Part shown: one piece after another, positions 25,882-47,774 of the stretch
Layout: each line of letters begins with the position of its first letter
Numbering within the stretch: the first letter of the stretch is position 1
From: a virus
Taxonomy: Duplodnaviria; Heunggongvirae; Uroviricota; Caudoviricetes
Strand: one strand, 5' to 3'
DNA: 61,488 nucleotides
Virus record (IMG/VR): IMGVR_UViG_2908567220_000003
Translations under genes and position numbers: made by a program
Notes under the pieces: generated by a model
Database searches by the model: none
What the model saw: the letters and a program-made list of their open reading frames with translations, nothing else
What the model was told of the DNA's origin: nothing

Positions 25882-25935
25882 CGGTGTACTCCATAAAGCT
25901 GAAAAAGGAGGCCGCAGCCTCCTCCTTACTCATGA

Positions 25936-27898: not shown

Positions 27899-27904
27899 AA
27901 AAAT

Positions 27905-27924
27905 GGCCTGGATTTTACCAGGCC
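27905..27924. terminator. bidirectional Rho-independent terminator between convergent genes
   Basis: stem GGCCTGG / CCAGGCC with 6-nt loop, flanked by A7 upstream and T-rich downstream. Confidence 0.6.
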
Positions 27925-27933
27925 TTTATCATT

Positions 27934-28182: not shown

Positions 28183-28227
28183 GTTTCCTCCTGCTACCAC
28201 GATACCAGAAACAGTTAACAACCGTTA

Positions 28228-28512
28228 TCAATTATCCCCTTTTTTTTTCGGGTAGTTCCTGAACATCTCACCGCCAGGTTTCTGTAAGCCCATCCCGGTA
28301 TGTGTGCGGTTTATGGCCTCTTTCAGTATTCCGAAATTATCCGGTATGACTGGTTGGCGCGCTGCCTTACGGATACATTCCGCGCGACGCTTTGCCACCT
28401 GTTCGCGCTCCTTGTCAGTGCTCACCAGCCACATAACATCAGCCCAACGTGCCGCCGCTCTCCGGTACAGCCCTTTAGCCTCCAGTTCTTCCGCTTTGCT
28501 GTCTTTAATCAT
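28228..28512 (-). CDS. PerC-family transcriptional activator-like protein
   Basis: ATG at 28512 (MIKDSKAEELEAKGLYRRAAARW); assignment from remembered PerC N-terminal motif. Confidence 0.5.
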   Translation of the reverse strand: MIKDSKAEELEAKGLYRRAAARWADVMWLVSTDKEREQVAKRRAECIRKAARQPVIPDNFGILKEAINRTHTGMGLQKPGGEMFRNYPKKKGDN

Positions 28513-28527
28513 GCTGTACCTCACTGC

Positions 28528-28953
28528 TTAAAACGGTATCCCGTCCCCGTACGGATCATCGTGCTGGCCTGTCTGTTGTTTTGCCCTGTTCAGTGCGTCA
28601 GTAGCCTGGCCCTGCTGGCCTTTTTTGCCGCCCGGTCGCGCCGTTCGCGCACTGATTACGCTGTCTGCGATGACCTGCCAGCCCTGCCGCATTTCGCCGT
28701 TCTGGCCTGTCCACTGGCTTACCTGCATGTTACCCGCCACACTCACCAGTTCGCCTTTCTGGTGTTTTGCCAGTGCATCGGCCTGTCTGCCAAACGCCAG
28801 GACGGATAACCACATCGTCGCCGTTCCGTCATCTGCCTGGCTGCACGGCAGGGGAACCGCCATACTCGCCATAGCCATTTGTGTCCCCTTGCTGGTGGTC
28901 TTTAACTGCGGGTCAGCCACCAGCCGCCCGTAAGCCGCTATCTGTGCTGTCAT
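28528..28953 (-). CDS. ssb: single-stranded DNA-binding protein (SSB-like OB fold with C-terminal DIPF tip)
   Basis: 141-aa ORF ending GDGIPF, Gly/Gln-rich linker; ATG verified. Confidence 0.65.
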   Translation of the reverse strand: MTAQIAAYGRLVADPQLKTTSKGTQMAMASMAVPLPCSQADDGTATMWLSVLAFGRQADALAKHQKGELVSVAGNMQVSQWTGQNGEMRQGWQVIADSVISARTARPGGKKGQQGQATDALNRAKQQTGQHDDPYGDGIPF

Positions 28954-29017
28954 GCTGTCTGTTCTCCGGTTTTAACGTTGATTGTTACGCTTGTTTACAC
29001 CCTTACGGTGAAATCCT

Positions 29018-29140
29018 GCGGGTTATAATCGCACTTTTGCGGGTTATAACTGCCGTTTTGCGGGTTACGTGCGGGTTACTGATTTCCTTTTTATTCATAC
29101 AGTTAATGCACTTATACACAGGATAACCCGCATAACCCGC
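29018..29140. repeat. iteron cluster 2 (candidate replication origin): four direct GCGGGTTA(T/C) repeats, AT-rich spacer, two inverted copies
   Basis: direct copies at 29018, 29039, 29060, 29071; AT-rich 29081..29120; inverted ATAACCCGC at 29123 and 29132; downstream of primase/helicase gene. Confidence 0.7.
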
Positions 29141-29163
29141 AACTTTTCACCTCACACAGGGGG

Positions 29164-31284
29164 TTAATCTTCTGCCTCAGGCTGGAACATCAGCACGTAA
29201 AAAACATGCTGCTTCCCCCCAATTTTGCCGAGCGCCTTTTTCTTGTAACGGCGATCGTTACCCGCTTCCAGCATTCCGGCAGCACTCAACGCGCGGGCAA
29301 AGTGAGACGGATTAAATCCCTGTGCTATCTCACCCTCAAATACATGCGGGAACGTGTAAAAACGGAACTCGTCATCTTCGTTTCTGATACTCCCCTTTCT
29401 GTATCCGGCAAGCTCTTTAATCGGTAAATCACGCTCGTCGGTGTTGGGCCACGGAAGGTATCTGCTGAATCCGAACGACGCTAAAAAAGCCTCTGCCTGT
29501 TCAACCATCTGTTTAAACTCCCTGTTACCCGTGCCGAACTCCTTCACCCAGGCATTAAAATTATGCTGAATGGCATCGCGGCACGCCTGAACATCCCAAC
29601 CAGTAATATGGACGGAAAGCACCAGCGCCGACTCCAGCATGGCGAATCGTTCCCCCACACGGTGAACCTGTTCGCCGTAACTCTCCGGTATCAGGTTGCG
29701 CCACCGTTCACGGCATGCCCTTACCGTATCCTTTGCCTCCTGCTGGTGGTCTGCCAGCCATTTAACCCATTCACGCCCCGCCGCCCCGTGATTTTCTGTC
29801 CAGGCATCCTTTAACGCGTCTGCGTGTGCCTTTCCGGTGCTGTATTCGTGAAACTGCGTGGCTTTTTCCATTGGCACGTTAAGCAGGCGGACAAGCTGCC
29901 CCGCCTTGACTTTTATCCCCTCCGTTTTGAGGAATGTCTCAACGTCCATTTCTCCGGTGCTGATTGCCACCGTGCGCCAGTGTTTGATCTCCCTGTTGCC
30001 GCCGTCCTTCGCCCCCTGTAATTTCCCCGAACCGTTAAACAGCGTATAAGCCGACGTGGACACTTCCCGCGCGTTTCCGGCCTGACCTATTTCATCCAGG
30101 GGTAATAGCCCGTCATTGTGCGCCTCTGCCTCGTTGGCGATGCCTAACGCTGTACCGTACCAGGTCAGCCGTTGCGCGTCCGGCTCTCCCCATAAACTGG
30201 ATGCGATGTTCTGTGTGGTGGTTTTCCCTGCCGATGACTGTTCGAAAAGATGTACCCCGAAGCCGTCAGCACCCACCAGCCCGATTAATGGTGCGGATAA
30301 CGATACCGCCACACCCAGCATCATGGACGGATTACCACCAGCCAGCCGCGCAACGGTATCGCGCCAGCCCTCCGCCGTTCCTGCCACAGAATAGCCATTA
30401 ACGGCAGCCGTTTTTCCGGTAAACAGGATCGGTTTTTCAGACTCACCAATGACTGAACCGTCCGGCATGATGTACGCACCAAAATGCCAGCCCGTTGTTG
30501 TGCTTAACTGCCATTCCTCATGGTTTCCGCTTAACTGCATCCAGTCAGCCAGGATAGCCCTGTATTTGCCGTTAGTTGTTACGTTAAGGCCGTGGTCTTT
30601 CAGCAACCGCCAGCCGTCACGGTCGCCAATGCCCCCGCACGGAACCGCCATTGTGATGACTTCATGGTTTGCGGGTTTCTTCCAGCGCATCACGCGGTAA
30701 TGCTCTTTGCCGATTGTCCCCGTTCCCAGTAGTTCAAGCGGGGAACATAACCACGTCTCAGGCCGGATAATTTCGCCTGACTGCTTGTCAACTTTGGGCG
30801 TTACCCAGAAAACACCATCGGCGCGACTTTCAACGCGGGGCTTTAATTCATCATCGCCCTGGCTTTCTGTGATTTTTTTCTTTAAGGGCAACACCAGACT
30901 TTCCCCGCGCTCGTATTCGTCTTTCAGCCGGGCAAGCTGCGGTGTCCAGTCCTCCAGTAGTTCACCGTTCTCGTCACAAAAACTGGCTTCCTTAACACCA
31001 GCCACTGCCAGCAGGGTTTCAATCTGTAACGCCTGTCTGTCATCCAGCTTTCCGGCACGTCTGACCATGGCGCGTAACCGTCCATCATCCACAATACGCA
31101 GGTTTTCCAGATTACCCAGGTCACGCCGCCCGAGATAAACAGGTGGTATTTTGTCGCCGCGCTTTCTGGCTTCTCCGCCCTGCATGTAATGCTCTGCGTG
31201 GCTGTATGCGTCATCCCCCGCAAAAATCACTGCATCCTCGCCTTTATCTTTCGGTAACAGTTTTACGTTCGGTGCCAGTTTCAT
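29164..31284 (-). CDS. replication primase/helicase (DUF927-type P-loop NTPase)
   Basis: 706-aa ORF with Walker A (SSAGKTTT); ATG verified; adjacent to iterons. Confidence 0.65.
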   Translation of the reverse strand: MKLAPNVKLLPKDKGEDAVIFAGDDAYSHAEHYMQGGEARKRGDKIPPVYLGRRDLGNLENLRIVDDGRLRAMVRRAGKLDDRQALQIETLLAVAGVKEASFCDENGELLEDWTPQLARLKDEYERGESLVLPLKKKITESQGDDELKPRVESRADGVFWVTPKVDKQSGEIIRPETWLCSPLELLGTGTIGKEHYRVMRWKKPANHEVITMAVPCGGIGDRDGWRLLKDHGLNVTTNGKYRAILADWMQLSGNHEEWQLSTTTGWHFGAYIMPDGSVIGESEKPILFTGKTAAVNGYSVAGTAEGWRDTVARLAGGNPSMMLGVAVSLSAPLIGLVGADGFGVHLFEQSSAGKTTTQNIASSLWGEPDAQRLTWYGTALGIANEAEAHNDGLLPLDEIGQAGNAREVSTSAYTLFNGSGKLQGAKDGGNREIKHWRTVAISTGEMDVETFLKTEGIKVKAGQLVRLLNVPMEKATQFHEYSTGKAHADALKDAWTENHGAAGREWVKWLADHQQEAKDTVRACRERWRNLIPESYGEQVHRVGERFAMLESALVLSVHITGWDVQACRDAIQHNFNAWVKEFGTGNREFKQMVEQAEAFLASFGFSRYLPWPNTDERDLPIKELAGYRKGSIRNEDDEFRFYTFPHVFEGEIAQGFNPSHFARALSAAGMLEAGNDRRYKKKALGKIGGKQHVFYVLMFQPEAED

Positions 31285-31580
31285 TTTTTACCTCTGGATG
31301 CGCTGAGCATGCTTTTTATTTTCTTAATATTTTCCCGTGCTTTTTCCCTGCTGGTGGGCTTACCGCGTGTTGCGTTCTGTACCAGAGAAAAATCACGCCG
31401 GAACTGATAAACAGGCATCACGCAGTCATAGCCGTACCCATCACGGCGGTAAGTAACGCACCGTCCCGCCACGCTTTTAATCGTTACCGTGCCGCCGTAG
31501 TTATCCCGGAAAATATCGCCGGGGCGGATTTCAGGCCGAGCGGGGCCGCTGGCAGTAAAGCCAGAAATTTTCTGTTTCAT
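31281..31580 (-). CDS. hypothetical protein
   Basis: 99-aa ORF, ATG verified, stop overlaps primase start. Confidence 0.4.
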   Translation of the reverse strand: MKQKISGFTASGPARPEIRPGDIFRDNYGGTVTIKSVAGRCVTYRRDGYGYDCVMPVYQFRRDFSLVQNATRGKPTSREKARENIKKIKSMLSASRGKK

Positions 31581-31585
31581 GGTTT

Positions 31586-31819
31586 TTATTTCCCGGTGTG
31601 TTGCTCTTTATATCTGTCGTGCAAGATGTCTATTTCTTGCAGTTCATTTATTACAGGCTCAAGAAGCGTTATTAATGCTGTTGCAATATTGCTGTTGCGT
31701 TTATCTCTTTCATTATCGCCAAGCGTTTCAAGCCATAAGCGCAATATTTCAAGCATGTTTTCACTGTAAGCAAGTGCGCTGTATGCATGATCTACTGTGT
31801 CATTGTAAATATCATGCAT
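31586..31819 (-). CDS. hypothetical protein
   Basis: 77-aa ORF, ATG verified. Confidence 0.4.
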   Translation of the reverse strand: MHDIYNDTVDHAYSALAYSENMLEILRLWLETLGDNERDKRNSNIATALITLLEPVINELQEIDILHDRYKEQHTGK

Positions 31820-31822
31820 GGC

Positions 31823-32023
31823 TCACCCCCCCTGAATATTCGCGTTAATCATTCCGACACGCTCTGCGAGTTCCTGTAATGATTCCCTTGTTGCGACAAT
31901 TGCTTCATCTGGCAGGTGGTAATTACTCACCACGCGACCTTTATCCACATTGACTAGCAACTGCCCGGTGAATTTCTCACGAAACTGGATGCGGTTAAGG
32001 TCGGTAAGTGACAGGTTAATCAT
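31823..32023 (-). CDS. hypothetical protein
   Basis: 66-aa ORF, ATG verified. Confidence 0.4.
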   Translation of the reverse strand: MINLSLTDLNRIQFREKFTGQLLVNVDKGRVVSNYHLPDEAIVATRESLQELAERVGMINANIQGG

Positions 32024-32219
32024 GGTGTACCCCCTGACGAATACGGGCGGCGAATACCATCACGCAGCCAGCCGGGGATTGCTGGCGTGCTTCCTGTTCG
32101 CTGGTGGCCTCAATGGTAATCACGCGCGGTTGTGCCGTGCTCAGGGCGATAAAACGCCAGATATATTTATTCAGGTTGTGCGAGTCCCGCCCTTGCGGGT
32201 GTGTGGTATGATTTCTCAT
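32016..32219 (-). CDS. hypothetical protein, first gene of leftward operon from the divergent control region
   Basis: ATG at 32219 with GAGGT RBS; only the 3-prime 67 codons of track ORF 32016..33089 are plausible. Confidence 0.4.
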   Translation of the reverse strand: MRNHTTHPQGRDSHNLNKYIWRFIALSTAQPRVITIEATSEQEARQQSPAGCVMVFAARIRQGVHHD

Positions 32220-32316
32220 AGCTACCTCGATACTCTTGCTATCGTTGGTGGTTAGACGCCCTGCATGTGTTGCGAGCACTGCGGGGCGTTGCTTAATTTG
32301 AGTGACAAAACTCAAA

Positions 32317-32395
32317 CTGTGCGCACAGATTAAAATCATGTGTGCGCACATGTCAATACTTAACATCTCATTTTTTTTGCTGTATTGTGTGCGCC
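32317..32395. promoter_or_regulatory. divergent promoter/operator region with TGTGCGCACA palindromes
   Basis: perfect 10-bp palindromes at 32319..32328 and 32341..32350 (23 bp centre to centre) plus TGTGTGCGCC half-site near 32386. Confidence 0.6.
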
Positions 32396-32424
32396 CATAA
32401 AGTCCATTTAAGTGAGGTGCATCA

Positions 32425-32622
32425 ATGTCTAGCGGTAACACAAACAACAAATCAGCAAAGAAAAATATTCGATTCCCACATGAGCTTATAGATGGGATTG
32501 ATGCCAGCGTTGAACAAGAAAAATTAACTAATCCTAGTGCTAATTTTTCCGCATGGGTCTTAGATGCCTGTGGACGCAAATTAAAATATGAACAGCGCCG
32601 GAAGGCCAAAGAATCAGAATAA
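32425..32622 (+). CDS. ribbon-helix-helix-type DNA-binding regulator (candidate satellite master repressor)
   Basis: 65-aa ORF, ATG with GTGAGGTG RBS; NIRFPHELIDGIDASVEQ pattern fits beta-strand plus helix of RHH fold. Confidence 0.45.
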   Translation: MSSGNTNNKSAKKNIRFPHELIDGIDASVEQEKLTNPSANFSAWVLDACGRKLKYEQRRKAKESE

Positions 32623-32664
32623 TCACTATCAGCGCCGTGGTGTGAGTAACTACGGCGCATTGCT

Positions 32665-32853
32665 ATGCAGGACAACACAATGACCGATAAAGAATTGACC
32701 AAAACATTATCACCGACACGGAAAAGACGGCGCAGAAAGATAGAGCATGAATCAGAAAGATTCGCACCTTGTTCGTTTGCTCTTGAGAAATTCCTTAAAG
32801 AGCGCAGGAAAAAGCTCTCGTTGCAAACCTTGGAACGAACCAAATCTGACTGA
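32665..32853 (+). CDS. hypothetical small basic protein
   Basis: 62-aa ORF, ATG verified; followed by GC hairpin and T-run. Confidence 0.35.
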   Translation: MQDNTMTDKELTKTLSPTRKRRRRKIEHESERFAPCSFALEKFLKERRKKLSLQTLERTKSD

Positions 32854-33233
32854 TCACATTGCCCACCAGCCGCAAATGTGGCATTGTTGGTGATGCTTTT
32901 GTTTTCCCTTGTTCCCACTGGCGACCCTTTTGCGGTCGCCTTTGTTTTGCCTGTTATCCGGCAATAGTGGCGCTTCGTCACCTGTCTGATATAATTCCAC
33001 AGCTTATATTCATTTTTTGCGCAGTAGGTTAATTGTTCGCAAGGGCGCTCCGGCAACGGGGCGCTTTTTGTTTTTACCCACCAGCACAATAAAAATCTTC
33101 ATTTTCCATTTTTGTAAAATTTCATGCTTTCCGGACGACTGGTCATATGTCATTTTTTAGCAGAAGATTTTGCCTTGCTGGTGGGTAGCTTCCCGGTCAA
33201 CACGATGTACCGTATAATCAACACCGCGTGTGG

Positions 33234-33812
33234 TTACTGAATACGCTCACCAAAGTAAAACTCAGGCTGGTATTCACGTATCAGCCTTTTTTCTTCTTCC
33301 TCCAGCTCACGCTTTTTGCGCTTACATGCCTGTAGCTCCCTCCCCTTCTCACTGGCACTTATCTGGTATTGCTCTTTGCGGCGGGAAAAATCCTGTAATG
33401 CGCCCCACGGGATACCATAAGCCCCCGTTTTTCTGATACCCGGTATCACATTTCTGAATACCCAGTTACTGAAACGATGAGCAAATGTGCCAGGCGTCGT
33501 TGCTTTGCGGCTGCGGGCTATTAGTTTGTAGAAACCTGATTCGGAGATAATGCTCATATTCTGATTTCCTCCGGGGGTGTAAGTTAAATTTACTCCCTTT
33601 TCGTCATCATCAAGCATCTGCAACGCCGTACGCGAATTGGTCAGTTCCAGCGCAGCACAAACATCCTTTGCAACAAACCACGGATCGCCGTTTAGATACA
33701 CCACACGAACATCCACGCCATCAAAGCGCAGAACGACCAGATCACGAATATCACAGAATTTTTTCACATGACGTGCGTCACCCTTGCCCGTCACGGCAAT
33801 ATTTTTATTCAT
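33234..33812 (-). CDS. Bro-N domain protein (antirepressor-like)
   Basis: 192-aa ORF with N-terminal Bro-N-like region and C-terminal charged coiled coil; ATG verified. Confidence 0.65.
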   Translation of the reverse strand: MNKNIAVTGKGDARHVKKFCDIRDLVVLRFDGVDVRVVYLNGDPWFVAKDVCAALELTNSRTALQMLDDDEKGVNLTYTPGGNQNMSIISESGFYKLIARSRKATTPGTFAHRFSNWVFRNVIPGIRKTGAYGIPWGALQDFSRRKEQYQISASEKGRELQACKRKKRELEEEEKRLIREYQPEFYFGERIQ

Positions 33813-33869
33813 TGCTTTTTACCTCACATACAAAAAACCCCGCATTGCGTGGTGCGGGGTTGTCGGTAA

Positions 33870-34148
33870 TTACTTATTGGCGTTTTTGTATGGGCTGTTT
33901 ACTTCCTTTACTCCTGGCGGATGCATAACCCACCAGAGCACATCAGAGAGCAACCAGGAAACAGACACTTTCCCTAAATGAGCACGAGCAGGAAATGCTC
34001 CCTCCTGTTCAAGTACCCAACGTCTGCTTCTTGAAAGCCCGGTACGATTGGCACACTCATGTTCGCGTATACGGCGATCATACGGTTCGCCATGATCTTT
34101 CAGAATCTGAATGCGTTCTTCGGGTGTAGGATAAATAAATTTTTGCAT
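33870..34148 (-). CDS. alpA: AlpA-family transcriptional regulator
   Basis: ATG at 34148 with AGGTGA RBS; motif GLSRSRRWVLEQEGAFPARAHLGKVSVSWLLSDV; downstream of integrase. Confidence 0.7.
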   Translation of the reverse strand: MQKFIYPTPEERIQILKDHGEPYDRRIREHECANRTGLSRSRRWVLEQEGAFPARAHLGKVSVSWLLSDVLWWVMHPPGVKEVNSPYKNANK

Positions 34149-34379
34149 AAAAATATCACCTATAAAAAAACCCGCCAAAAGACGGGTTGATTATATCTCA
34201 TTTAATTTAGCTCAGGGTTTCCATTCACCTTTTACCCATTCCAGCACCTCAGATAAGCGCCAGACTTTTGTTTGTGGGCCAATACATATTTTTCGTAACC
34301 GTCTCATTTAAACCGTCTTTCGCCTCCCTTTCCTGTTTCCGATACTAATGTCCATTTTCGCAGTAAAGGGACATTTAAG

Positions 34380-35030
34380 ATGAATGCACGAAAAGCGGTA
34401 CTGGCAGACAATCCGGAATTGATCCTGCGTGTGCTACAGCTGAGATTTGACGAGTCACTGTCGTACCCGCGCATTTCTGCGCAGACCGGTGTCAGCAAAA
34501 CCGCCATTTTTTCTCTGGTGAGGCGATTTCACCAGGTATTCACTGACTGGCCTCTTTCCGGTGAATATTCCTGCGGGCAACTGGCCCGGGCTCTTTTCCC
34601 GGGGCGATACCCTTCAGCCCCGACCGTGACTCAGCCTGTGAAAGCAGAGAAACCCCGCCGGAACCGATTTTCACCGGAGTTTAAATGGAGACTGGTTCAG
34701 CAAACTCTTTTACCCGGTGCCTGTGTCGCACAAATAGCTCGAGAGAATGGAATTAACGATAACCTGCTCTTTAACTGGCGGCATCTCTGGCGTAACGGTG
34801 GCCTGCAACCGCCCGGCGAACATGAAACATCGCTACTTCCCGTGACGTTAACTCCGGAGCCGGATAATAAAATCCCGGCACCAGTGCAGATACCTGAACA
34901 GATAAATACACTGCCAGACAGTCTGTGCTGCGAGCTGGTTCTGCCGGCCGGAACTCTCAGGCTGAAAGGTGAACTGACACCGGCGTTATTACAGACACTT
35001 ATCCGCGAAATGAAAGGGAGCAGCCACTGA
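34380..35030 (+). CDS. IS66-family accessory protein (orf1, HTH)
   Basis: 216-aa ORF, first of three in the IS. Confidence 0.7.
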   Translation: MNARKAVLADNPELILRVLQLRFDESLSYPRISAQTGVSKTAIFSLVRRFHQVFTDWPLSGEYSCGQLARALFPGRYPSAPTVTQPVKAEKPRRNRFSPEFKWRLVQQTLLPGACVAQIARENGINDNLLFNWRHLWRNGGLQPPGEHETSLLPVTLTPEPDNKIPAPVQIPEQINTLPDSLCCELVLPAGTLRLKGELTPALLQTLIREMKGSSH

Positions 35031-35377
35031 TGATATCTCTCCCTGCCGGTTCGCGTATCTGGCTGGTTGCCGGTATCACCGATATGCGAAATGGCTTTAA
35101 CGGCCTGGCCTCAAAAGTTCAGAACGTCCTGAAGGATGACCCGTTCTCCGGGCATCTGTTCATCTTCCGCGGACGCCGGGGTGACCAGATAAAAGTGCTG
35201 TGGGCTGACAGTGACGGACTGTGCCTCTTCACCAAACGCCTGGAGCGGGGCCGCTTCGTCTGGCCGGTCACCCGCGATGGAAAGGTTCACCTTACTCCGG
35301 CTCAGTTGTCCATGCTTCTCGAAGGCATCGACTGGAAGCACCCGAAACGAACGGAACGCGCTGGCATCCGCATATAA
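35030..35377 (+). CDS. tnpB: IS66-family TnpB (orf2)
   Basis: 115-aa ORF, ATGA overlap with orf1, typical IS66 orf2 size and sequence. Confidence 0.8.
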   Translation: MISLPAGSRIWLVAGITDMRNGFNGLASKVQNVLKDDPFSGHLFIFRGRRGDQIKVLWADSDGLCLFTKRLERGRFVWPVTRDGKVHLTPAQLSMLLEGIDWKHPKRTERAGIRI

Positions 35378-35396
35378 CCCGTTGTAAAGTGAGGAT

Positions 35397-36968
35397 ATGG
35401 ACACCTCACTTGCTCATGAGAATGCCCGCCTGCGGGCACTGTTGCAGACGCAACAGGACACCATCCGCCAGATGGCGAAATACAACCGCCTGCTCTCACA
35501 GCGGGTGGCGGCTTATGCTTCCGAAATCAACCGGCTGAAGGCGCTGGTTGCGAAACTGCAGCGCATGCAGTTCGGTAAAAGCTCAGAAAAACTTCGCGCT
35601 AAAACCGAACGGCAGATACAGGAAGCCCAGGAGCGAATCAGCGCACTTCAGGAAGAAATGGCGGAAACGCTGGATGAGCAATATGACCCGGTACTGCCAT
35701 CCGCCCTGCGCCAGTCTTCAGCCCGTAAGCCGTTACCGGCCTCACTTCCCCGTGAAACCCGGGTCATCCGGCCGGAAGAGGAATGCTGCCCGGCCTGTGG
35801 TGGTGACCTCAGTCCTCTGGGGTGTGATGTGTCAGAGCAACTGGAGCTTATCAGCAGCGCTTTTAAGGTTATCGAAACACAACGTCCGAAACTGGCCTGT
35901 TGCCGGTGCGACCATATCGTGCAGGCACCAGTACCTTCAAAACCCATTGCACGCAGTTATGCCGGAGCGGGGCTTCTGGCTCATATCGTCACCGGGAAGT
36001 ATGCAGACCATCTGCCGTTATACCGCCAGTCAGAAATATACCTTCGTCAGGGCGTGGAACTGAGCCGCGCCACGCTGGGGCGCTGGACCGGTGCCGTTGC
36101 TGAACTGCTGGAGCCGCTGTATGACGTGCTGCGCCAGTATGTGCTGATGCCCGGTAAAGTCCATGCGGATGATATCCCCGTTCCGGTCCAGGAGCCGGGC
36201 AGTGGTAAAACAAGAACTGCCCGGCTGTGGGTCTATGTCCGTGATGACCGTAACGCCGGTTCACAGATGCCCCCGGCGGTCTGGTTCGCGTACAGCCCGG
36301 ACCGGAAAGGTATCCATCCACAGAATCACCTGGCCGGTTACAGCGGTGTGCTTCAGGCAGATGCTTACGGTGGTTACCGGGCGTTATACGAATCCGGCAG
36401 AATAACGGAAGCCGCGTGTATGGCCCATGCCCGGAGAAAAATCCACGATGTGCATGCAAGAGTGCCAACCGACATCACCACGGAAGCCCTGCAGCGTATC
36501 GGTGAACTGTATGTCATCGAGGCAGAAGTCCGGGGATGTTCAGCAGAACAGCGTCTGGCAGCAAGAAAAGCCAGAGCGGCTCCACTGATGCAGTCACTGT
36601 ATGACTGGATACAGGAACAGATGAAAACACTGTCGCGTCACTCGGATACGGCAAAAGCGTTCGCATACCTGCTGAAACAGTGGGAGGCCCTGAACGTGTA
36701 CTGCAGTAATGGCTGGGTGGAAATCGACAACAACATCGCAGAGAACGCCTTACGGGGAGTGGCCGTAGGCCGGAAAAACTGGCTCTTCGCGGGTTCCGAC
36801 AGCGGTGGCGAACATGCGGCGGTGTTGTACTCGCTGATCGGCACATGCCGTCTGAACAATGTGGAACCAGAAAAATGGCTGCGTTACGTCATTGAGCATA
36901 TCCAGGATTGGCCGGCAAACCGGGTACGCGATCTGTTGCCCTGGAAAGTTGATCTGACCTCTCAGTAA
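35397..36968 (+). CDS. tnpC: IS66-family transposase (orf3)
   Basis: 523-aa ORF with leucine-zipper-like N-terminus and Cys-rich motif. Confidence 0.8.
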
Positions 36969-37122
36969 ATATCAATACGGTTCTGGCGAGCCGCTTACTA
37001 TTTTTCGTGGAAATTTTCCTTCCTTTTCAAGTAACGATCTGTGTCTCCTGCCAAGAGCGGTTAACCATGCACATTCATCTTCCTTAATCATCCTGTCGAT
37101 TGTTTCATCATTTTCAAGTTCT

Positions 37123-38346
37123 TCACGCGTAACTATTTGAATCATTACTGTCACCACTAATTTGCTTATTCAGATAGTCGTACCACCAGTTCATAGCTTC
37201 TTTTTTTCTGTCCATATACTGGCTTCTGTTATAAACCCCGGCAACACCGCCTAATGTGTGCCCAAGCAACTGTTCAACCACATTATGTTCAAAACCATGA
37301 TCACTTAGTTTTGTGGCAAACACTCTTCGCATATCATGCGCCGTCCATTTCTCCGAGTGTTTCATCCTTTTCCATGTCTTACCGATAGTTACGCTTGCCG
37401 TACACTGACGCATATCAAACCCAATCACATTTTCTTTGTTACCTGTTATTTTTTTTAACGTAACTAACCAGTTAAACATGCCATCAGGAATCGGTCTGAT
37501 TATTTCCCTGCCATTTTTGCTATGATCAGCGGGAACGCGCCATAATTTCTTATCAAAATCCCACTCTACCCAGGACGACAGTAATACTTCTGACAGTCGA
37601 CAACCAAAAACTACCAGGAAACGTAAAATAATTCGGTTTTCATATGATAATTCGTGATTGTCATAATCAGTATTAATACTTCGCCATAAATCTCTGATTT
37701 CATCATCTGTTAAAACCCTGCTTCTTCGCGCAGACTTTTTTCCCACATCACAGACCTCAAGATCATCAATTTCATGACTAATCGCGTATTTTCTTACCCT
37801 ACAAAATTTAAGCGCCTGTTTTGATATACGCAACAAAGCTCCGGCCTGTACAGGTGCTACTTTTTTTATTTTGTCAAAACACTTAATCCACATAGATATA
37901 GAGCAATCACTAAGTGGTACATGACCAATCACCGGATAAATATGTTTACCAAAGCACTGCCTGATATGTTCTGCTCCCCTACGCTTATCCATTGCATAAT
38001 TATCAAGCCAGTATTCAAGTGCCTCACGAACGGTAACAGGTTGCAAGGTGGCTTCCCGTTCAATTTTTATCTGAATCCGTGGATCTCTGCCCTCCGCAAG
38101 CCAAGTTCGACACTGATCGCGCATCTCTCTCGCTGATTTGAGACTCAGATCAGGATATTTTCCAAGTGTCAGCCAGATGGGCGCGGTTTCCCTTCCCGCC
38201 AGTCTGTAAAAGAAAACAAAACTAACACATCCGTATTTACTGACCCGTACCGAAAGCCCGTTACCATCAGCGATGGTTTCCTGCCTCTCACTCCTGCGTC
38301 CAAGCAGGGAACGAAGTTTTTTATCGCTCAGTTTGTTTAGCGCCAT
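37123..38346 (-). CDS. int: tyrosine integrase, P4-type (satellite)
   Basis: ATG at 38346 (MALNKLSDKKLRS) inside track ORF 37123..39546; C-terminal R..H..GH..Y catalytic pattern; adjacent to right junction. Confidence 0.85.
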   Translation of the reverse strand: MALNKLSDKKLRSLLGRRSERQETIADGNGLSVRVSKYGCVSFVFFYRLAGRETAPIWLTLGKYPDLSLKSAREMRDQCRTWLAEGRDPRIQIKIEREATLQPVTVREALEYWLDNYAMDKRRGAEHIRQCFGKHIYPVIGHVPLSDCSISMWIKCFDKIKKVAPVQAGALLRISKQALKFCRVRKYAISHEIDDLEVCDVGKKSARRSRVLTDDEIRDLWRSINTDYDNHELSYENRIILRFLVVFGCRLSEVLLSSWVEWDFDKKLWRVPADHSKNGREIIRPIPDGMFNWLVTLKKITGNKENVIGFDMRQCTASVTIGKTWKRMKHSEKWTAHDMRRVFATKLSDHGFEHNVVEQLLGHTLGGVAGVYNRSQYMDRKKEAMNWWYDYLNKQISGDSNDSNSYA

Positions 38347-38518
38347 GTGATTTATAACCCGTTTTTGCAATACACAGTGCAATACACAAATGATGAAAAC
38401 AGCCAGAACCTTCCAGAAAAAACAAAAACGACGAACAAGAAAAAAATCTTTTTCTTTCATTTGGTTACTAAAAAAATCAGGACAGGTCGCACTGTTGTTA
38501 CGGCGTGATGTTACTTTC

Positions 38519-39546
38519 TTGGTAAAAAAATTCACCCGCGCAGAGACCTGCTCCTTCGCTTTTTTCGCCAGACGACGCAGATCATCCCAGCGTTTACAGA
38601 TGCCCAGGCCAGGATTCGCTTTCTGCCAGACCGTTTCATCAAACGGATCATCTCCCTCATCGAGCGTGTAAATGATCGCAAAGTAGGAGTCGTCTTTTAC
38701 CGCGCCCTCCACGTCGCTGTTATAGCCTCGCAATACCTTAATGGCGTAATCGCGCTGCTCGTAGCAAATCCCTTCCTTGTTAAAGCCAGCCGTGGTGATG
38801 CCAAATAACAGAGACTGCAGACGGGCACCGGTTGCCGTTTCCAGAACGTCCCACACGTCACGGGTTTTATGAGCATGCAGCTCATCAATAATGGCACAGT
38901 GGATGTTCAGACCGTCCAGGTTGTTTGCATCCGAGGAAAGCGGTTCAAATTTTGATGCGCTCTGCTCCTGGTAAATCGCCAGCTTGTTGAAGTCAAACAA
39001 CCGCCCGAGTGTCGACCGGGCTTTTCTGACCATATTTTTGGCGTCTTCAAACACAATTCTGGCCTGGTCACGCGTGGTTGCGGCTGAATACACCTCAGCC
39101 CCGCCTTCACCATCTGCCCCCGTCATATACAGACCGATACCCGATGACAGGGTTGATTTTGCGTTTTTACGGGCAACTTCGTTGTATGCTGTCCGGAACC
39201 GGCGCACCATCACCGGGCGTCCACTGCCATCGCTGCGCATGACAACTTCCCCGGTTTCTTCATTCACCAGCGGAATGACAAAACCAAAAATATTAATGAG
39301 GATAAACACATGCCAGTCCATCAACTCAATGGGCTGACCTGCCAGCGCCCCTTTCACATGGGGTACAAATTTGTAGAAATTAAGGATGTGCTGTGCACGA
39401 GGTTCACTGAAATAAATCCCCCGCTCTTCGCCGTACTTCAGATCATCAAGAAAACGCTGGCAGGCCAGACGGACAAATTCGCCAGCAACAATTTCTCCTG
39501 CAACAACACGTTCGGCGTAGCGGATCCCGTCAGCCACTTTTGCCAT
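38519..39546 (-). pseudogene. terL: terminase large subunit, N-terminal (ATPase) fragment of the interrupted prophage terL
   Basis: first ~345 codons of track ORF 37123..39546 align to N-terminal half of TerL 21083..22744 up to the FFTKK motif; ATG overlaps terS stop. Confidence 0.8.
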
Positions 39547-41376: not shown

Positions 41377-41838
41377 CTATCTGCACTGCTCATTAATATA
41401 CTTCTGGGTTCCTTCCAGTTGTTTTTGCATAGTGATCAGCCTCTCTCTGAGGGTGAAATAATCCCGTTCAGCGGTGTCTGCCAGTCGGGGGCTGGTTGCA
41501 TTATCCACGCCGGAGGCGGTGGTGGCTTCACGCACTGACTGACAGACTGCTTTGATGTGCAACCGACGACGACCAGCGGCAACATCAGCGCGCAGAGTTT
41601 CATTTTCAGCTTTCGCATTGGCTAATTCTCTCGAGTACTTTGCATCGAGTGCAGCAACATCACGCTGACGCTGCTGCATGTCAGCGATAGTGGCGATCGC
41701 CTGCTTCAGCTCACTGACTTTTTTATCACGCTGTTCTTTGTAGGCGATGGCGTTATCACGGTAATGATTGACCGCCCACGACAGGCAGACGATGATGCAG
41801 ATAACCAAAGCATAAATAATCGCGGCGACTCTGCTCAC
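41377..41838 (-). CDS. Rz: i-spanin Rz
   Basis: lambda Rz-like; track start 41853 is TTG; GTG at 41838 overlaps R stop (GTGA). Confidence 0.8.
41436..41618 (-). CDS. Rz1: o-spanin Rz1 lipoprotein embedded in Rz
   Basis: 60-aa ORF in +1 frame inside Rz; lipobox LVVVGC and proline-rich stretch; ATG verified. Confidence 0.8.
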
Positions 41839-42368
41839 TGCTCTATCCCCCAACAGGCTAATGCGCTTTCCTGGTCACGACGAATAACCTGTCCATAGCA
41901 GTTATTTGAACGTATGCGGCAATCGCGCCCACCATCTTTTATCCACCAGCGAATCGCCTCGCATGCGCCCTTACGATCACCGGCATTCAGCCGCTTATAA
42001 AACGTCGACGGGAAACACTTACCGGGGCCAATGTTATAGGGACAGAATGACGCTATACCCGCTTTTTGTGGTTCGGTCAGTGGTACTTTAATATTGCGCT
42101 CCACCCATGCCAGCGCCTTATCACGCTCAATGGCGTTGACCTGGTCGCATTTTTCCTTCGACAGTTTCATACCGGGAAAAACGGGTTTTCCATCCACCAT
42201 CGTGGCACCCCGACAGATGGTCCAGATGCCGGACCCATCGCGGTATGCCGTTGTGTGGTTACCTTCTTTTTCATCCAGAAACTGGTCGAGAATATCAGGC
42301 GCGGGCGCACAGACGGCAATCAGTGCCAGAACGGCAGCCGACAGGCCGTATCTGATTTTTGCGTTCAT
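41835..42368 (-). CDS. R: SAR endolysin (lysozyme with N-terminal signal-anchor-release segment)
   Basis: 177-aa ORF with hydrophobic N-terminus and lysozyme catalytic region ([22 protein letters not shown]); ATG verified. Confidence 0.8.
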
Positions 42369-42431
42369 GGATATTTATCAGGATTTATCGGTTTCTGCCC
42401 ACGGACAGGTTTATCTGTTCCGGTCAGTGAC

Positions 42432-42782
42432 TTAAGGTTGTGATTCCGGAGGAGTCTTCAGAGAACCAGTAATTCTTCCCGGTAGCTTTCCTTTGTAGGT
42501 TATCCATACATTCTGCGCCTCTAAAATTACGGGGCGCTTTTCCGGCGACTGCTCATCCCCTTCACATAACCCGGCAGCAACATCCAGGAAGACCTGTCTG
42601 ATGCTCATTCTGGCTGCTGCCTCATAAAACTCCAGCGCGGCACCTTCAACACGGTCCAGCGAGATGTCCAGGTCAAAAATTTCACCGTCAAAGCGTTTTT
42701 TGTCCCGTAACGCTAAAGTTACCGTAACTTTATTCTCAAAATTGCGGATCCCTTTCACAATCAGTTCATAGTTTTGAGTCAT
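42432..42782 (-). CDS. hypothetical protein between holin and endolysin
   Basis: 116-aa ORF, ATG verified. Confidence 0.4.
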   Translation of the reverse strand: MTQNYELIVKGIRNFENKVTVTLALRDKKRFDGEIFDLDISLDRVEGAALEFYEAAARMSIRQVFLDVAAGLCEGDEQSPEKRPVILEAQNVWITYKGKLPGRITGSLKTPPESQP

Positions 42783-42786
42783 TGAA

Positions 42787-43002
42787 TTACTCTCCCCGTG
42801 CCGCCTTACGACGGTCCTCTCTGATTTTGAAATACAGGTTAGTCAGATATGTCAGCAGCCCAAACAGCAGACTCCCCAGCACGCCTATTGCCGCCCACTG
42901 AGACGGGGAAACCCTGTCCAGCAACTGCAGGAACCAGTAGCCCGTTCCCACCGCTGACGTGGTGTATGACACACCTGTTGTGATTTTTTCCATCTGGTCC
43001 AT
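42787..43002 (-). CDS. S: holin (phage 21 S-like pinholin) with dual-start motif
   Basis: ATG at 43002 (MDQMEKI) inside track ORF 42787..43107; two TM segments, charged C-terminus. Confidence 0.8.
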
Positions 43003-43309
43003 ACCCCGTCTCCCGTTATCCGGAAGCTGACAACAATAAAAAAGCCACCAGTTAACTACTGATGGCTCTGATAACTCATGCAAGCGTCTCAGACGACCCA
43101 CTGACACTACCGGTGAGTTTAACGATATCTTCCATTTGACTGGCTCACTTTTTATGATGATGCCGGTGCATTTATCTCCAGCACCAGACTTTCTATCTCA
43201 ACGCCATACGTTGCATTTTTGGTAATATCCGTCAGCGTCAGTGCATTTAGTCCCACTGCCAGACTGTCTTTTATGGCCTGGAATGCCGGGCCAGTACGAT
43301 GACGTAGTA

Positions 43310-43513
43310 TCACTCCGGCTCAGTTGCACCACTGACCACCACATCACCTTCTGCTGCAATCGCCTGCATCAGGGTATAAGGGGTTATGGCCACCGGACTA
43401 CCAAACGGCTGCCAGCCCTCTTTCAGTTTATGTGTCAGCTTTTCCGCAAGATCTGACGGCGGCGCCGCCCTGACAACATCATAGTGTTTAAATGCCATGG
43501 TTCTTTCCACCAT
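43310..43513 (-). CDS. hypothetical protein (YdfR-like)
   Basis: 67-aa ORF; ATGs at 43513 and 43498; possibly truncated. Confidence 0.4.
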   Translation of the reverse strand: MVERTMAFKHYDVVRAAPPSDLAEKLTHKLKEGWQPFGSPVAITPYTLMQAIAAEGDVVVSGATEPE

Positions 43514-43758: not shown

Positions 43759-44094
43759 ATGAAGTGGATTGTGATTGATACAGTTATCCAGCCATCATGC
43801 GGAATATCTTTTTCAGTCATATGGAGTAAAGTAAAATTAATAATCTGGTATCAATCGGATGCTTTCTTACCTCCTGAAAGTATATTTACACTGACTCACA
43901 CAGGTATCATGCTCAATAACAAAGTGCTACCTGTAACCATTTACAACGTAGTACCATTCAATAAAACATTCTGGAATTTAATCAAAAACAGCCAGGAATG
44001 CCCTACAAATACAGATAACGTATTGAATGAATGCTTTAATAACCGTTGCACTCTGCAAATATGTCCTTATGGACTAAAACAACAAAGTCCATAA
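43759..44094 (+). CDS. hypothetical protein (AT-rich moron)
   Basis: 111-aa ORF with AAGGAAG RBS, opposite strand to late genes. Confidence 0.35.
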
Positions 44095-44541
44095 GGAGTT
44101 TACTCACATCTGACAAAATCAATATAAACAGCCCCTCCGGAGAGGGGCTGGAGAGTGGCGCTATGTGCCATTGCATGGTGCCGGGTGCCTCCCGGTGAAT
44201 TCAGTACCAGCACCTGAATCCGCGATTATCCCATATACCTACTCGCTGATTGCCCCTCCGCACAGGGGGATTCACCATGCCAGTTTCTTTTAACAAACTC
44301 CCCGCAAACCAGACAACAGTCAACCGCCTGAATTGTGAAGTATTTAAAAATTTCTCCCGCTAACTGATACCCGGCTAACAGTCTGGCGTTTTCTTTTTCA
44401 GCAACGGGAAAGCAACAACCACCACACCCGCCACCAGCACACCGTCAGCCAGCACTGACATTATCCGGCTGCTGCAATGCCACTCACAAAAACAGTAAGC
44501 AATCACTTTTTACCGTAACAAGTGATAATCCAGATATGTAT

Positions 44542-44868
44542 CTACCCCAGATGAGTAATCCGAAGTTCATCCATACCACAGGTACTGGCTATTCTGTTGT
44601 ACTCCTGAACAAGAGCAAATAATTCTGAATTAGCAACCATGAACTCATCGCAAACCCTCTGTATAGCATCACTATTCAGAATAATAACGTCTCTTCCCGA
44701 AAGACGATCAGGAGTACAGAACAAAACTGCCAAACGGCTGAAGGCCTTTGCTCGTCCTGCATTGACTATATCAATACGCTGCCTAAGGATGAAACACCCC
44801 GACGCCTCATCAATATTCACTCTACCCACACCATATGAATGATAAATATTTAATGCTGAAAAAACCAT
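44542..44868 (-). CDS. hypothetical protein (moron downstream of phage tRNAs)
   Basis: track ORF 44542..44895 starts at TTG; first ATG at 44868; AT-rich. Confidence 0.35.
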   Translation of the reverse strand: MVFSALNIYHSYGVGRVNIDEASGCFILRQRIDIVNAGRAKAFSRLAVLFCTPDRLSGRDVIILNSDAIQRVCDEFMVANSELFALVQEYNRIASTCGMDELRITHLG

Positions 44869-45008
44869 TAAACCGTATAACAAACACTCAATCAATACTT
44901 AACAGAACTTTTATTTTTGACAAACATAAAATATTTTCAACAATATCCTGAGCCAGGTATATTTCAGTATAAGGCTCTGCCGGAAGGAATCTGGAAGAAT
45001 GAATATAG

Positions 45009-45082
45009 CGCGCTGTACTGGATTCGAACCAGTGACCGATTGCTTAGAAGGCAATTGCTCTGTCCGGCTGAGCTAACAACGC
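45009..45082 (-). tRNA. tRNA-Arg (anticodon UCU)
   Basis: manual fold: 7-bp acceptor stem, D arm GCTC/GAGC, anticodon loop CTTCTAA, T loop GGTTCGAATCC; no encoded CCA. Confidence 0.75.
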
Positions 45083-45183
45083 TGAATACCGATAATGGAC
45101 CGCCATCGGGGACCCGCCCCCGCACCAACAACCCTGTTATCGTGTCGTCTGCTCTTCCTGATAAGCTAATGGCGGTTTGTGAT

Positions 45184-45258
45184 GGTGGCCCTTGCTGGAT
45201 TTGAACCAGCGACCTGGCGATTATGAGTCGCTCGCTCTCACCACTGAGCTAAAGGGCC
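45184..45258 (-). tRNA. tRNA with anticodon CAU (Ile2/Met type, ileX-like)
   Basis: manual fold: acceptor GGCCCTT, anticodon loop CTCATAA, T loop GGTTCAAATCC, encoded CCA. Confidence 0.75.
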
Positions 45259-45401
45259 GGGAGCAGAATAATAACGGTCCGTAATTAATTCCGCAATAAA
45301 AAACCCGCTCGGCGGCGGGTTGTAGAAACTCTTCTAACGTCAGGCATAAAAAGCCCATTGTTATGACGAATTTACCACAGATTCCGGAAAAATCAACCTT
45401 G

Positions 45402-46237: not shown

Positions 46238-46600
46238 TTAATGCATTATGGGGTAAATCTTCACCCCCAGACGTCCACCAGATACTGGCTGACCACGAAC
46301 GATATTGATTTCATCAAACTGCTCATCGTCCATTAACACTCCCGCATGCGTCAGCGCATCCAGCGGTGCTTTCAGGATATTGTCCAGGTCGCGACGACGC
46401 TTATCCGGTGGCTCTGCAATCACCTTTATCGCCAGCCTTCCGGACAGGTTTAATTTCAGCCGCTGCTGGCGAACAATTAGCGCCACATCACGGCGATAAC
46501 GCTTTCCGGCCTCCGAGATGAAATACGTATTGCCATGACGTCGCCAGTAGGTATTCACCGTCGGCGGGTAAGGCAAAACAAATTCTATGCGTTCAGTCAT
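46238..46600 (-). CDS. rusA: Holliday junction resolvase RusA
   Basis: 120-aa ORF, RusA-like sequence, upstream of Q; ATG verified. Confidence 0.8.
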   Translation of the reverse strand: MTERIEFVLPYPPTVNTYWRRHGNTYFISEAGKRYRRDVALIVRQQRLKLNLSGRLAIKVIAEPPDKRRRDLDNILKAPLDALTHAGVLMDDEQFDEINIVRGQPVSGGRLGVKIYPIMH

Positions 46601-47659
46601 TCATGCTTTCCACTTCAGGACACCCGAATTTCTCGCGTGCATTAAAAAACGAATCAGCAACAACAGCTGGCTGCCGTGTTTTTCTTCAAAATCTTTTACC
46701 CCGGCGTGCAGTTCGTTATGACATTTACGGCACAGCGGAATAACAAACAAATCATCAGCCTTTGTTCCCATACCTCCCAGGCCATGACCAATGATGTGAT
46801 GCGGATCATCTGCCTGATTACCGCACGTCATGCATTTCTGCGTTTTTACCCAGCGCGTGTATACAGGCATCTCTTCCCGTTGTGGTTTCTGGCGCTGGAG
46901 ATACTGAGCCGGAGACTCCGGATCAACGGCGATGCTTACTAACGTCTTTTCCTGGAGTGGGGGCTGTTGCTGGTGGACGTGAAGTGGCAGCGCAATATTT
47001 TTTGTGCGCTGCTTCAGTATGCTGGTGGCAGTCTGTTCTCCCGGTACGATGTCACTCTCACGGTATACGGAGCGGATTTTTTCCACCGGTAATCCCAGTG
47101 AACGACACAATACAGACTCCGGAAGCGCATCAGCCACCTGATTGCAGACCGCCCACCAGGATAATTCGGCCAGCGATAACTCCCTCTCCTGCGTACCGCT
47201 GATTGCGTGACGGATGACGTCAATCATCCATGCTGACAAGTTTTGGTGAGCAAGTTGCTCAAGTGATTCTGAGGTCTGGTCACGCAACTGGTTGTCGCAG
47301 TGCCAGCACAACACCATTGCGCCGGTACCATAACGGTGAATGACGGTTTCACTGTGGTGATAATCACCGTGTGGCCACTGGCAGGATTTAATATGGCGCA
47401 ACAGCCAGTCAGACAGTGCACCAGCGCCGCCAGCAGCACGAATCACACGCTCATTGCTGAAAAATGGCAGTAATGATTTATCCTCCGCCAGCGGCTGGCG
47501 AACGGCAGGGACGACTCCGGATGGCAGGCCGCACATGCTTTTCGGTTCCGGCTCCACCAGCACTCGAGGATTATGAAATATCTGTATGGATTCACGGCCC
47601 GGCTTAAGGACCACCAGCCCAAGCTCAGGCACCAGAACAGGTCTAAGTAATACCCGCAC
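46601..47659 (-). CDS. DUF968-family phage protein (HNH-like Cys/His motifs)
   Basis: 352-aa ORF; track start is GTG; IS66 copy 2 lies 30 bp upstream. Confidence 0.55.
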   Translation of the reverse strand: MRVLLRPVLVPELGLVVLKPGRESIQIFHNPRVLVEPEPKSMCGLPSGVVPAVRQPLAEDKSLLPFFSNERVIRAAGGAGALSDWLLRHIKSCQWPHGDYHHSETVIHRYGTGAMVLCWHCDNQLRDQTSESLEQLAHQNLSAWMIDVIRHAISGTQERELSLAELSWWAVCNQVADALPESVLCRSLGLPVEKIRSVYRESDIVPGEQTATSILKQRTKNIALPLHVHQQQPPLQEKTLVSIAVDPESPAQYLQRQKPQREEMPVYTRWVKTQKCMTCGNQADDPHHIIGHGLGGMGTKADDLFVIPLCRKCHNELHAGVKDFEEKHGSQLLLLIRFLMHARNSGVLKWKA

Positions 47660-47774
47660 GTTACCTCCAGATCCGTTGCTGGAAAGTGCGTAACCGTCTC
47701 ATTTAAACCGTCTTTCGCCTCCCTTTCCTGTTTCCGATACTAATGTCCATTTTCGCAGTAAAGGGACATTTAAG

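Follow-up and report, generated by a model that had tools for sequence, protein, structure and literature searches.

We analysed a short open reading frame (ORF), here called ORF92, in the late region of a lambdoid E. coli prophage, a DNA of 61,488 nt (IMG/VR record IMGVR_UViG_2908567220_000003). This whole stretch is referred to as the window; coordinates are those of the window unless another sequence is named, and the late region lies on its minus strand. Conservation identifies ORF92 as a genuine gene of 92 amino acids (aa) under purifying selection, and comparison with a Shiga toxin (Stx) phage supports placing it, together with the small gene tciB, exactly where that phage carries stx2A and stx2B. 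In our overall account, to which we give a probability of about 0.6, ORF92 is late cargo dependent on the antiterminator Q, its 92-aa product would be a helical-hairpin binder, and the gene would be a dispensable accessory; most of the uncertainty lies in the binder and accessory step. This kind of late-operon cargo, the protein family PHROG 2873 and the ileZ-argN-argO tRNA cluster are known, and ORF92 is an uncharacterised member.

The slot between Q and S carries Shiga toxin and other conversion genes, and a non-Stx cargo within it bears on the evolution of the locus and on the benefit to the host. RefSeq omits ORF92 almost everywhere, with about 1,180 complete E. coli genomes lacking its annotation, and this makes it invisible to annotation-based analyses of pangenomes, transcriptomes and proteomes. 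The corrected model (GTG at 44820, 92 aa) renders a widespread gene at a medically relevant locus testable. Should ORF92 confer a phenotype, it would be a new factor in a well-studied virulence hotspot; otherwise it would be one more orphan phage gene.

Reading frame, start codon and distribution of ORF92

The frame ending at 44542 is open back to three possible starts, i.e. GTG at 44820 (92 aa), ATG at 44868 (108 aa) and TTG at 44895 (117 aa). Six diverged lineages, among them Citrobacter and metagenomic relatives with a protein identity of 32-40 %, all keep this sense frame open, and in each of the other frames five or more of the six lineages have stops. Pairwise ratios of nonsynonymous to synonymous substitution rates (dN/dS) were 0.24-0.27 in the ORF92 frame (three lineages) and close to 1 in both remaining sense frames, and between pairs of lineages differences at third codon positions were about twice those at position 1 or 2. 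The 92-aa ORF was intact in all 80 copies of the window lineage retrieved from IMG/VR, phage and genome sequences. On this comparative evidence, we consider ORF92 a genuine gene under purifying selection. A preliminary description of the locus had allowed for an ORF without conservation; the opposite was found.

It is scarcely credible that there is no gene here, i.e. that the frame is a chance opening in an AT-rich spacer, or that the stretch acts as an RNA or encodes an antisense ORF (44639-44842, plus strand). RefSeq has no feature over ORF92 in any close copy inspected, including those of EC958 and 042, which amounts to an implicit opinion of the Prokaryotic Genome Annotation Pipeline (PGAP). 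A low dN/dS is also seen in antisense frame 1, and a terminator-like hairpin lies within the ORF at 44706-44688. Against these points, PGAP does annotate the copy of the L002 type, 63 % identical in protein sequence, as a hypothetical protein (WP_001017777.1), profile searches return full-length homologues of 91-97 aa, the AlphaFold model has a confident fold, and within the ORF there is no Rfam match at E ≤ 1. Antisense frame 1 is open in L002 and carries 2-7 stops in the other five lineages, while none of the six has a stop in the sense frame. A low dN/dS in an antisense frame is a known mirror effect of a constrained sense frame, and an antisense gene was rejected on both counts. We regard the no-gene reading as already largely refuted.

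The position of the start was assessed from variation within and between lineages. Across the 80 window-lineage copies, the share of variable sites is 3.6 % in ORF92 (six out of ten at codon position 3), 10.7 % in the extension from TTG to GTG and 13 % in the sequence further upstream, so that their density falls three-fold at GTG 44820. In one haplotype, a deletion of a single nucleotide at 44864 disrupts the frame of the 108-aa form and spares the 92-aa ORF. In E. coli, the L002 type (63 % protein identity) and the L003 type (59 %) are exactly 92 codons long, from the aligned GTG to the aligned stop. A GTG or an ATG aligns at this point in the E. coli and Citrobacter lineages, preceded by a Shine-Dalgarno sequence (AGGAG in L002, AAGGG in L012, from Citrobacter), and the sequences upstream of it are unrelated between lineages. 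The start was placed at GTG 44820 because of these aligned starts, the upstream variability, the deletion at 44864 and the unrelated upstream sequences.

A longer product, of 108 aa from the ATG or 117 aa from the TTG, is accordingly given little credence. In the window lineage almost every copy has the extension open in frame, databases contain clusters of 108 aa and of 117/118 aa, and the PHROG 2873 profile has 108 positions. Yet this extension has no counterpart in L002, L003 or Citrobacter, whose ORFs begin at the aligned GTG or ATG, its density of variable sites resembles that of the flank rather than that of the 92-aa part, the frameshifting deletion just past the ATG leaves the shorter ORF whole, and its GC content at third codon positions is 0.12. 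The preliminary description had reported an AT-rich ORF of 108 aa: the open frame is real and moderately AT-rich (GC 0.44, and 0.31 in the 187 nt upstream, versus 0.49-0.51 for Q, the lysis genes and the whole window), but its likely start shortens the product to 92 aa. The possibility that ORF92 is a fragment of a larger gene was rejected, as its length and its two ends do not differ between lineages. Within the window lineage, codon 22 (44755-44757, minus strand) has three alleles, Gly, Ala and Glu, among 25 haplotypes; Glu is found in the other lineages.

ORF92 is present in 1312 of 5426 complete E. coli genomes, at 95 % nucleotide identity or more in 1185 and in a 60-80 % band in 126; the carriers include members of clinically important lineages, namely EC958, of sequence type ST131, and the enteroaggregative E. 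coli 042. By comparison, 3194 genomes match, mostly in part, a 1-kb query containing the tRNA cluster. A scan of one genome per species (185,579 species), using a five-sequence alignment, gave matches only in E. coli, in Citrobacter braakii and in a 2.7-kb contig, binned as Bacillota, whose encoded protein is identical to an E. coli sequence of the L002 type. In a tblastn search of 50,697 phage records the sole match was mEp460_ev081, and neither P1 nor JLK-2012 was hit. ORF92 belongs to a very small prophage family of the Enterobacteriaceae.

The late-operon slot, its control signals and its tRNAs

In the Stx2a phage Stx2_EH1846 (LC567840), the gene order is ydfU-Q-methylase-tRNA(CAU)-tRNA-Arg-tRNA-Arg-stx2A-stx2B-iraM (opposite strand)-nanS-p-holin. 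The tRNA cluster of the window (45298-44998) is 88 % identical to that of this phage, and on the other side window positions 44338-43341, with STnc100 and iraM, align with Stx2_EH1846 sequence starting 46 nt past stx2B. Between these flanks, the window has 660 bp (leader, ORF92 and tciB) and the Stx phage 1369 bp with stx2A-stx2B. As the flanks align and the interior differs, the 660-bp segment is therefore allelic to the stx2AB segment. The preliminary description had placed the ORF where Stx phages carry toxin genes, and this alignment supports it: ORF92 and tciB take the exact place of stx2AB. The window thereby shares slot, strand and a homologous backbone with Stx2 phages (Stx2_EH1846, 933W type), whereas its cargo is unrelated, a predicted cytoplasmic helical hairpin of 92 aa with no sign of toxin nature.

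The variable slot is bounded on its right by STnc100, a prophage small RNA (sRNA). An independent paper puts STnc100 75 nt downstream of stx2 (PMC12370729), and a relation to the PasD sRNAs of prophages is given by Zhu, Shabalina and Storz (bioRxiv 10.64898/2026.05.13.724894). The L003 lineage lies on a backbone 90 % identical to an Stx2 phage, with a tciB remnant after its ORF92 homologue; four tandem copies of STnc100 follow downstream of this homologue and a fifth lies elsewhere (L003 2186-3165 and 4925-5137). A position between Q with its PR'-tR' signals and the holin gene, orientation on the late strand, replaceability on homologous backbones and deviant GC content characterise late-operon cargo, and ORF92 has all four.

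The same slot is used by the tci genes. In JLK-2012 it reads Q-tRNAs-tciA-tciB-STnc100-nanS-p-S, and in both JLK-2012 and P1 a tRNA and tciA-tciB(-tciC) module links tRNAs to tci, the tRNA in P1 being an ileX-like tRNA-Ile2. As in JLK-2012, tciB is followed by STnc100 in the window, but the position of tciA is occupied by ORF92, which is unrelated to TciA (TerB domain) or TciB. Homologues of ORF92 do precede tci genes in other backgrounds: in L011 (E. coli, L002 type) and in L005/L012 (Citrobacter) the homologue is followed by tciA (TerB; 87 % identical to P1 TciA), tciB and holin genes.

We therefore considered whether ORF92 forms one cassette with TciA and TciB (a membrane peptide), in which it would be a cytoplasmic regulator or partner and the effect would concern the envelope, cell division, colicin or phage exclusion, or lysis timing. 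Its precedence over tciA-tciB-holin in L011 and L005/L012 is in favour, though the homologues there are 39 % identical to the window ORF, as are the gap of 35 nt between ORF92 and tciB in essentially every copy of the window lineage and the tciB remnant kept after ORF92 in L003. On the other hand, in L011 and L012 a strong terminator lies between the homologue and tciA, and the same terminator follows the L002 homologue, where there is no tci gene. Moreover, tciA-tciB is common without ORF92 (P1, JLK-2012 and, overall, 104 phage records versus one with ORF92), the shared hotspot may alone explain the co-occurrence, and the tci function is itself given in the P1 annotation only 'by homology'. 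We judge a common cassette unlikely. The pattern is, as far as these comparisons tell, that of an independent small cargo gene riding in late operons.

Candidate signals for late expression were found on the minus strand past the stop codon of Q and ahead of the first tRNA (45294-45396). A candidate late promoter PR', read by eye, consists of a -35 hexamer TTGATT (45396-45391), a 16-nt spacer and an extended -10 element TGgTAAATT with its hexamer at 45374-45369; the two hexamers match the consensus at 8 of 12 positions, which is below the threshold of the promoter scan. It is followed by a candidate terminator tR', scored by the scan as a strong intrinsic one, with a stem-loop of seven pairs (five GC) at 45321-45302 and a TTTTTATT tail. 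By analogy with lambda and Stx phages, we infer that downstream genes would be read only by Q-modified polymerase. Dependence on Q and PR' is established for stx2, and the position of ORF92 makes its expression from the late promoter plausible. A weak promoter-like site, TTGAAA-16-AAAAAT (9/12), also lies upstream of ORF92 at 44940-44913; such sites are no more numerous than in shuffled sequences.

The first terminator downstream of ORF92 in the window comes only after STnc100. In other lineages, a strong terminator lies 24-40 nt downstream of the homologue (L002 3436-3453, L011 1341-1358 and L012 6316-6335), and L012 has another upstream. A comparison of E. coli with Citrobacter shows stronger conservation of the downstream terminator and the next ~60 nt (…GCGCACATCAAAAAC(C)ACAGAGCCTTTCAGGG…) than of the ORF. 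This stretch, which has no Rfam match at the gathering threshold, may be a tciA leader or another RNA element. Directly upstream of the Citrobacter homologue (L012 5880-5941), a perfect TATAAT is followed ~30 nt later by a strong terminator; this unit resembles the PR'/tR' kind and lies ~5 kb from the Q gene of that phage.

Both tRNAs named in the preliminary description, one with a CAU anticodon and a tRNA-Arg(UCU), were found by ARAGORN as well as by Rfam. The CAU tRNA was compared with its K-12 counterparts: it is identical to ileX at 68 of 76 positions and to metT/metU at 52 of 77, it has the acceptor stem GGCCC of ileX, and PGAP labels it tRNA-Ile. A tRNA-Met was rejected on this basis; the gene is best assigned to the ileX/ileZ-type tRNA-Ile2, predicted to read AUA after lysidine modification. 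The tRNA-Arg(UCU) is of the argO/argU type by alignment with argU and with argO of the Stx phage. At 45005-45007 it ends in CUA and not CCA (position 45007 is T in 24 of 79 copies and C in 55), so that its maturation would need repair or addition of CCA. Its U4-G69 wobble pair corresponds to a U-A pair in the copy of the Stx phage.

The two tRNAs are almost invariant across the 79 copies. The 100-nt 'spacer' between them aligns with the middle tRNA-Arg (argN) of Stx2_EH1846: its acceptor/D and T/acceptor ends are kept and its anticodon arm is replaced. This remnant, called by neither ARAGORN nor Rfam, is hypervariable in the same copies, with many substitutions and changes in poly-G length. 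The order is that of the ileZ-argN-argO cluster of phage 933W, reportedly described by Plunkett and colleagues in 1999, and of Stx phages, with which the window also shares the CAU and UCU anticodons that decode the rare AUA and AGA/AGG codons. It differs from them in an argN that lacks the anticodon arm and is drifting, and in the CUA end of the UCU tRNA.

The preliminary description had suggested comparing these tRNAs with the codon usage of the late genes. The matching codons are enriched in the slot cargo and in regulatory and lysis genes, and not in structural late genes (Table 1). The enrichment of AUA and AGA/AGG amounts to 5- to 25-fold (ORF92, iraM, Q and lysis genes) and is absent in head and tail genes, the counts behind these values being small.

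Table 1. Frequency (codons per 1000) of codons read by the tRNAs of the slot
Gene set	AUA	AGA	AGA+AGG
ORF92	32	21.5	43
iraM	45	0	0
Lysis genes	11.8	18.5	23.6
Q/RusA/DUF968	12	6.7	13.4
Prophage head genes	2.4	0	4.0
K-12 housekeeping genes	4.5	0.9	1.4

Predicted product and proposed function

An AlphaFold model of ORF92, built from a five-sequence alignment, has a mean predicted local distance difference test score (pLDDT) of 82 and consists of two long antiparallel helices (residues 3-35 and 50-81). The loop between them carries an invariant TPDRxSG motif, and many polar surface residues are invariant. R23, N64 and Y74-N75 are invariant positions as well. The protein is mildly acidic (isoelectric point 4.8-5.4) and rather hydrophobic; it has no membrane segment, and the 92-aa product shows neither an N-terminal hydrophobic segment nor a signal peptide.

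The family was assigned by profile comparison. Residues 10-117 of the 117-aa form match positions 1-108 of the 108-position PHROG 2873 profile (E 3.8e-69), which places ORF92 in this family of unknown function; the PHROG model differs in including a 16-residue N-terminal extension which, according to the comparative data, is not translated. Beyond this, the protein remained as unrecognised as the preliminary description had found it. No family was matched in Pfam by the window protein and ten family members (a DUF6847 match of one distant member, E 0.0013, was dropped since no other member shows it), nor was there a match of ORF92 in NCBIfam or of the window protein in PADLOC-DB, in which one of the ten members matched HEC-06 at E 0.009. 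The best PDB sequence had E 0.039 against the family profile, and Foldseek against PDB and BFVD returned nothing below E 0.26. Three word-indexed searches of 5.8 billion proteins gave no function for ORF92.

An exhaustive HMMER profile search of 1.84 billion representative proteins yielded 22 hits, all small unnamed proteins except P0036, a 696-aa repeat protein regarded as spurious. P0037 and P0039, which are distantly related (identity 24 % and 22 %, E 1.6e-5 and 2.4e-4, respectively), are encoded in tail-gene operons, as small inserts. Literature searches found neither the protein accession nor the PHROG identifier, and DUF3927 and TciA/B are mentioned there at annotation level only.

These searches matched ORF92 to no enzyme, defence or DNA-binding family, and no catalytic features were seen. 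Homology and structure searches also gave no match to a known housekeeping phage protein, an outcome that the preliminary description had left open. Shiga/AB5 subunits gave no Pfam or PDB sequence match, and the all-helical model is unlike the folds of the Stx A and B subunits; homology to Tci proteins was likewise not supported, as neither TerB nor DUF3927 was matched in Pfam. Generic two-helix hairpins (ROP, prefoldin, FliJ/FlgN, coiled-coil arms of SMC proteins, designed hairpins) resemble the model at 3-23 % identity and Foldseek E ≥ 0.26. This fold class is common to unrelated proteins, and therefore no function was transferred.

In the account we favour, Q-modified RNA polymerase would read from PR' through tR' after induction and transcribe the tRNAs and ORF92 with the late operon, to which the weak promoter of ORF92 itself might add some expression in the lysogen. 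Translation from the GTG would be helped by the co-transcribed rare-codon tRNAs. The soluble hairpin product would then bind a partner protein, of the host or the phage, stoichiometrically and probably as a dimer or four-helix bundle; such binding is proposed because the hairpin is without catalytic features and because its surface polar residues and TPDRxSG loop are invariant. ORF92 would act as an accessory factor, in lysogenic conversion or directed against the host or a competitor, and not as a part of virion assembly or lysis.

A small late regulator serving the phage itself, through lysis timing, holin triggering or late transcription or translation, would also fit a gene that is always on the late strand a short way upstream of the holin gene, and P0037 and P0039 are within late operons too. 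ORF92 is nonetheless missing from the majority of phages that share this Q, these tRNAs and these lysis genes; homologous backbones have stx or tciAB in its place, and its product lacks a membrane segment of the antiholin kind. We find this role quite improbable. Returning to ORF92 as an accessory factor, a bolder version would make it the founder of an uncharacterised class of small conversion factors with a helical-hairpin fold, in competition with stx and tciAB for the Q-controlled slot. After induction, or weakly in the lysogen, it would bind and redirect a specific protein of the host or a rival phage (e.g. in the envelope, division or stress response), possibly together with TciB and STnc100, giving ~24 % of E. 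coli, ST131 and 042 among them, a selectable phenotype. We put this forward as rather unlikely speculation.

Layout of the locus and other elements in the window

The features of the locus are listed in Table 2. The arrangement given in the preliminary description, with Q upstream of two tRNAs and with the tRNAs and the ORF upstream of the lysis genes on the late strand, is borne out by the Pfam Antiterm match and by the holin, YdfR and lysozyme genes; the counterpart of Q in EC958 and 042 is called 'antitermination protein' by PGAP. Not mentioned there were tciB/DUF3927, STnc100, iraM (on the opposite strand) and a nanS-p remnant, which also lie between ORF92 and the lysis genes. The DUF1737 ORF of this remnant is 96.7 % identical to the 5' end of yjhS of phage JLK-2012, and the esterase part is deleted in the window. 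In Stx phages and their relatives, this spot is occupied by the nanS-p/yjhS sialate esterase gene. The iraM homologue has a GC content of 0.35, and AUA accounts for 5 of its 12 Ile codons; anti-adaptors of this kind stabilise RpoS.

Table 2. Features of the locus from the DUF968 gene to the lysis cassette
Feature	Position	Strand	Evidence
DUF968 gene	46601-47659	-	ORF and Pfam
RusA gene	46238-46600	-	ORF and Pfam
Q antiterminator gene, 273 aa	45402-46223	-	Pfam PF03589 Antiterm, E 6.3e-55
tRNA-Ile2 (CAU, ileX/ileZ type, CCA encoded)	45183-45258	-	ARAGORN; Rfam 72.5 bits
Decayed argN-type tRNA-Arg pseudogene	45083-45182	-	Alignment with middle tRNA-Arg of Stx2_EH1846
tRNA-Arg(UCU), argO/argU type	45008-45082	-	ARAGORN; Rfam 68 bits
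AT-rich untranslated spacer / 5' leader of ORF92, GC 0.31	44821-45007	-	Composition
ORF92, 92 aa, GTG start, TAG stop	44542-44820	-	Conservation, dN/dS, PHROG 2873
tciB / DUF3927 small membrane protein gene, 43 aa	44375-44506	-	Pfam PF13064, E 1.7e-27; PHROG 1470 'TciB-like'; PGAP 'DUF3927 family protein'
STnc100 (PasD-related) prophage sRNA	44120-44309	-	Rfam RF02076, 132.4 bits (gathering score 47)
Terminator of STnc100	44150-44129	-	Terminator scan
iraM homologue (RssB anti-adaptor)	43759-44094	+	NCBIfam NF007393, E 7e-48, above cut-off; PGAP
DUF1737 ORF, 67 aa (5' remnant of nanS-p/yjhS esterase gene)	43310-43513	-	Pfam DUF1737; PGAP: partial
Holin	42787-43002	-	Pfam Phage_holin_2_1
Lysis cassette (class II holin, YdfR/DUF1327, lysozyme), closing the slot	41835-43107	-	Pfam Phage_holin_2_1 and DUF1327; PGAP

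Elsewhere in the window, an integrative element of ~18 kb (20562-38519) lies inside the terL gene of the prophage, with junctions at 38519 and 20561. The ORF at 37123-39546 (807 aa) is an in-frame fusion of the 5' part of terL with an integrase, the ORF at 19831-20556 is the 3' part of terL, and joining the flanks at the shared TTACCAA (38519/20561) restores an open terL. Hundreds of E. coli genomes have the uninterrupted joint at 100 % identity, and 36, including 042, have the occupied junction. A 21-bp repeat (38367-38387 and 20643-20663) was rejected as the core of the attachment site, the true junctions being those given above. The insert encodes an integrase, a Bro-N protein and a DUF927 primase-like protein, followed by capsid-protease-portal-connector-HNH-terS-terL, which is the published gene order of proteobacterial phage-inducible chromosomal islands (PICIs) that form capsids. 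By this gene content it may be classed as a satellite of the capsid-forming PICI type, with the host prophage as a possible helper.

Two 100 % identical copies of a 2705-bp insertion sequence of the IS66 family lie in the same orientation at 34294-36998, within the satellite-like insert, and at 47689-50393, just upstream of the DUF968 gene, and bracket the region from Q to terS. E. coli 042 has otherwise the same arrangement without both copies. In the early region, Rfam matches at gathering level were obtained for sok beside a hokD-type locus (50966-51137, minus strand) and for DicF (56903-56954, plus strand).

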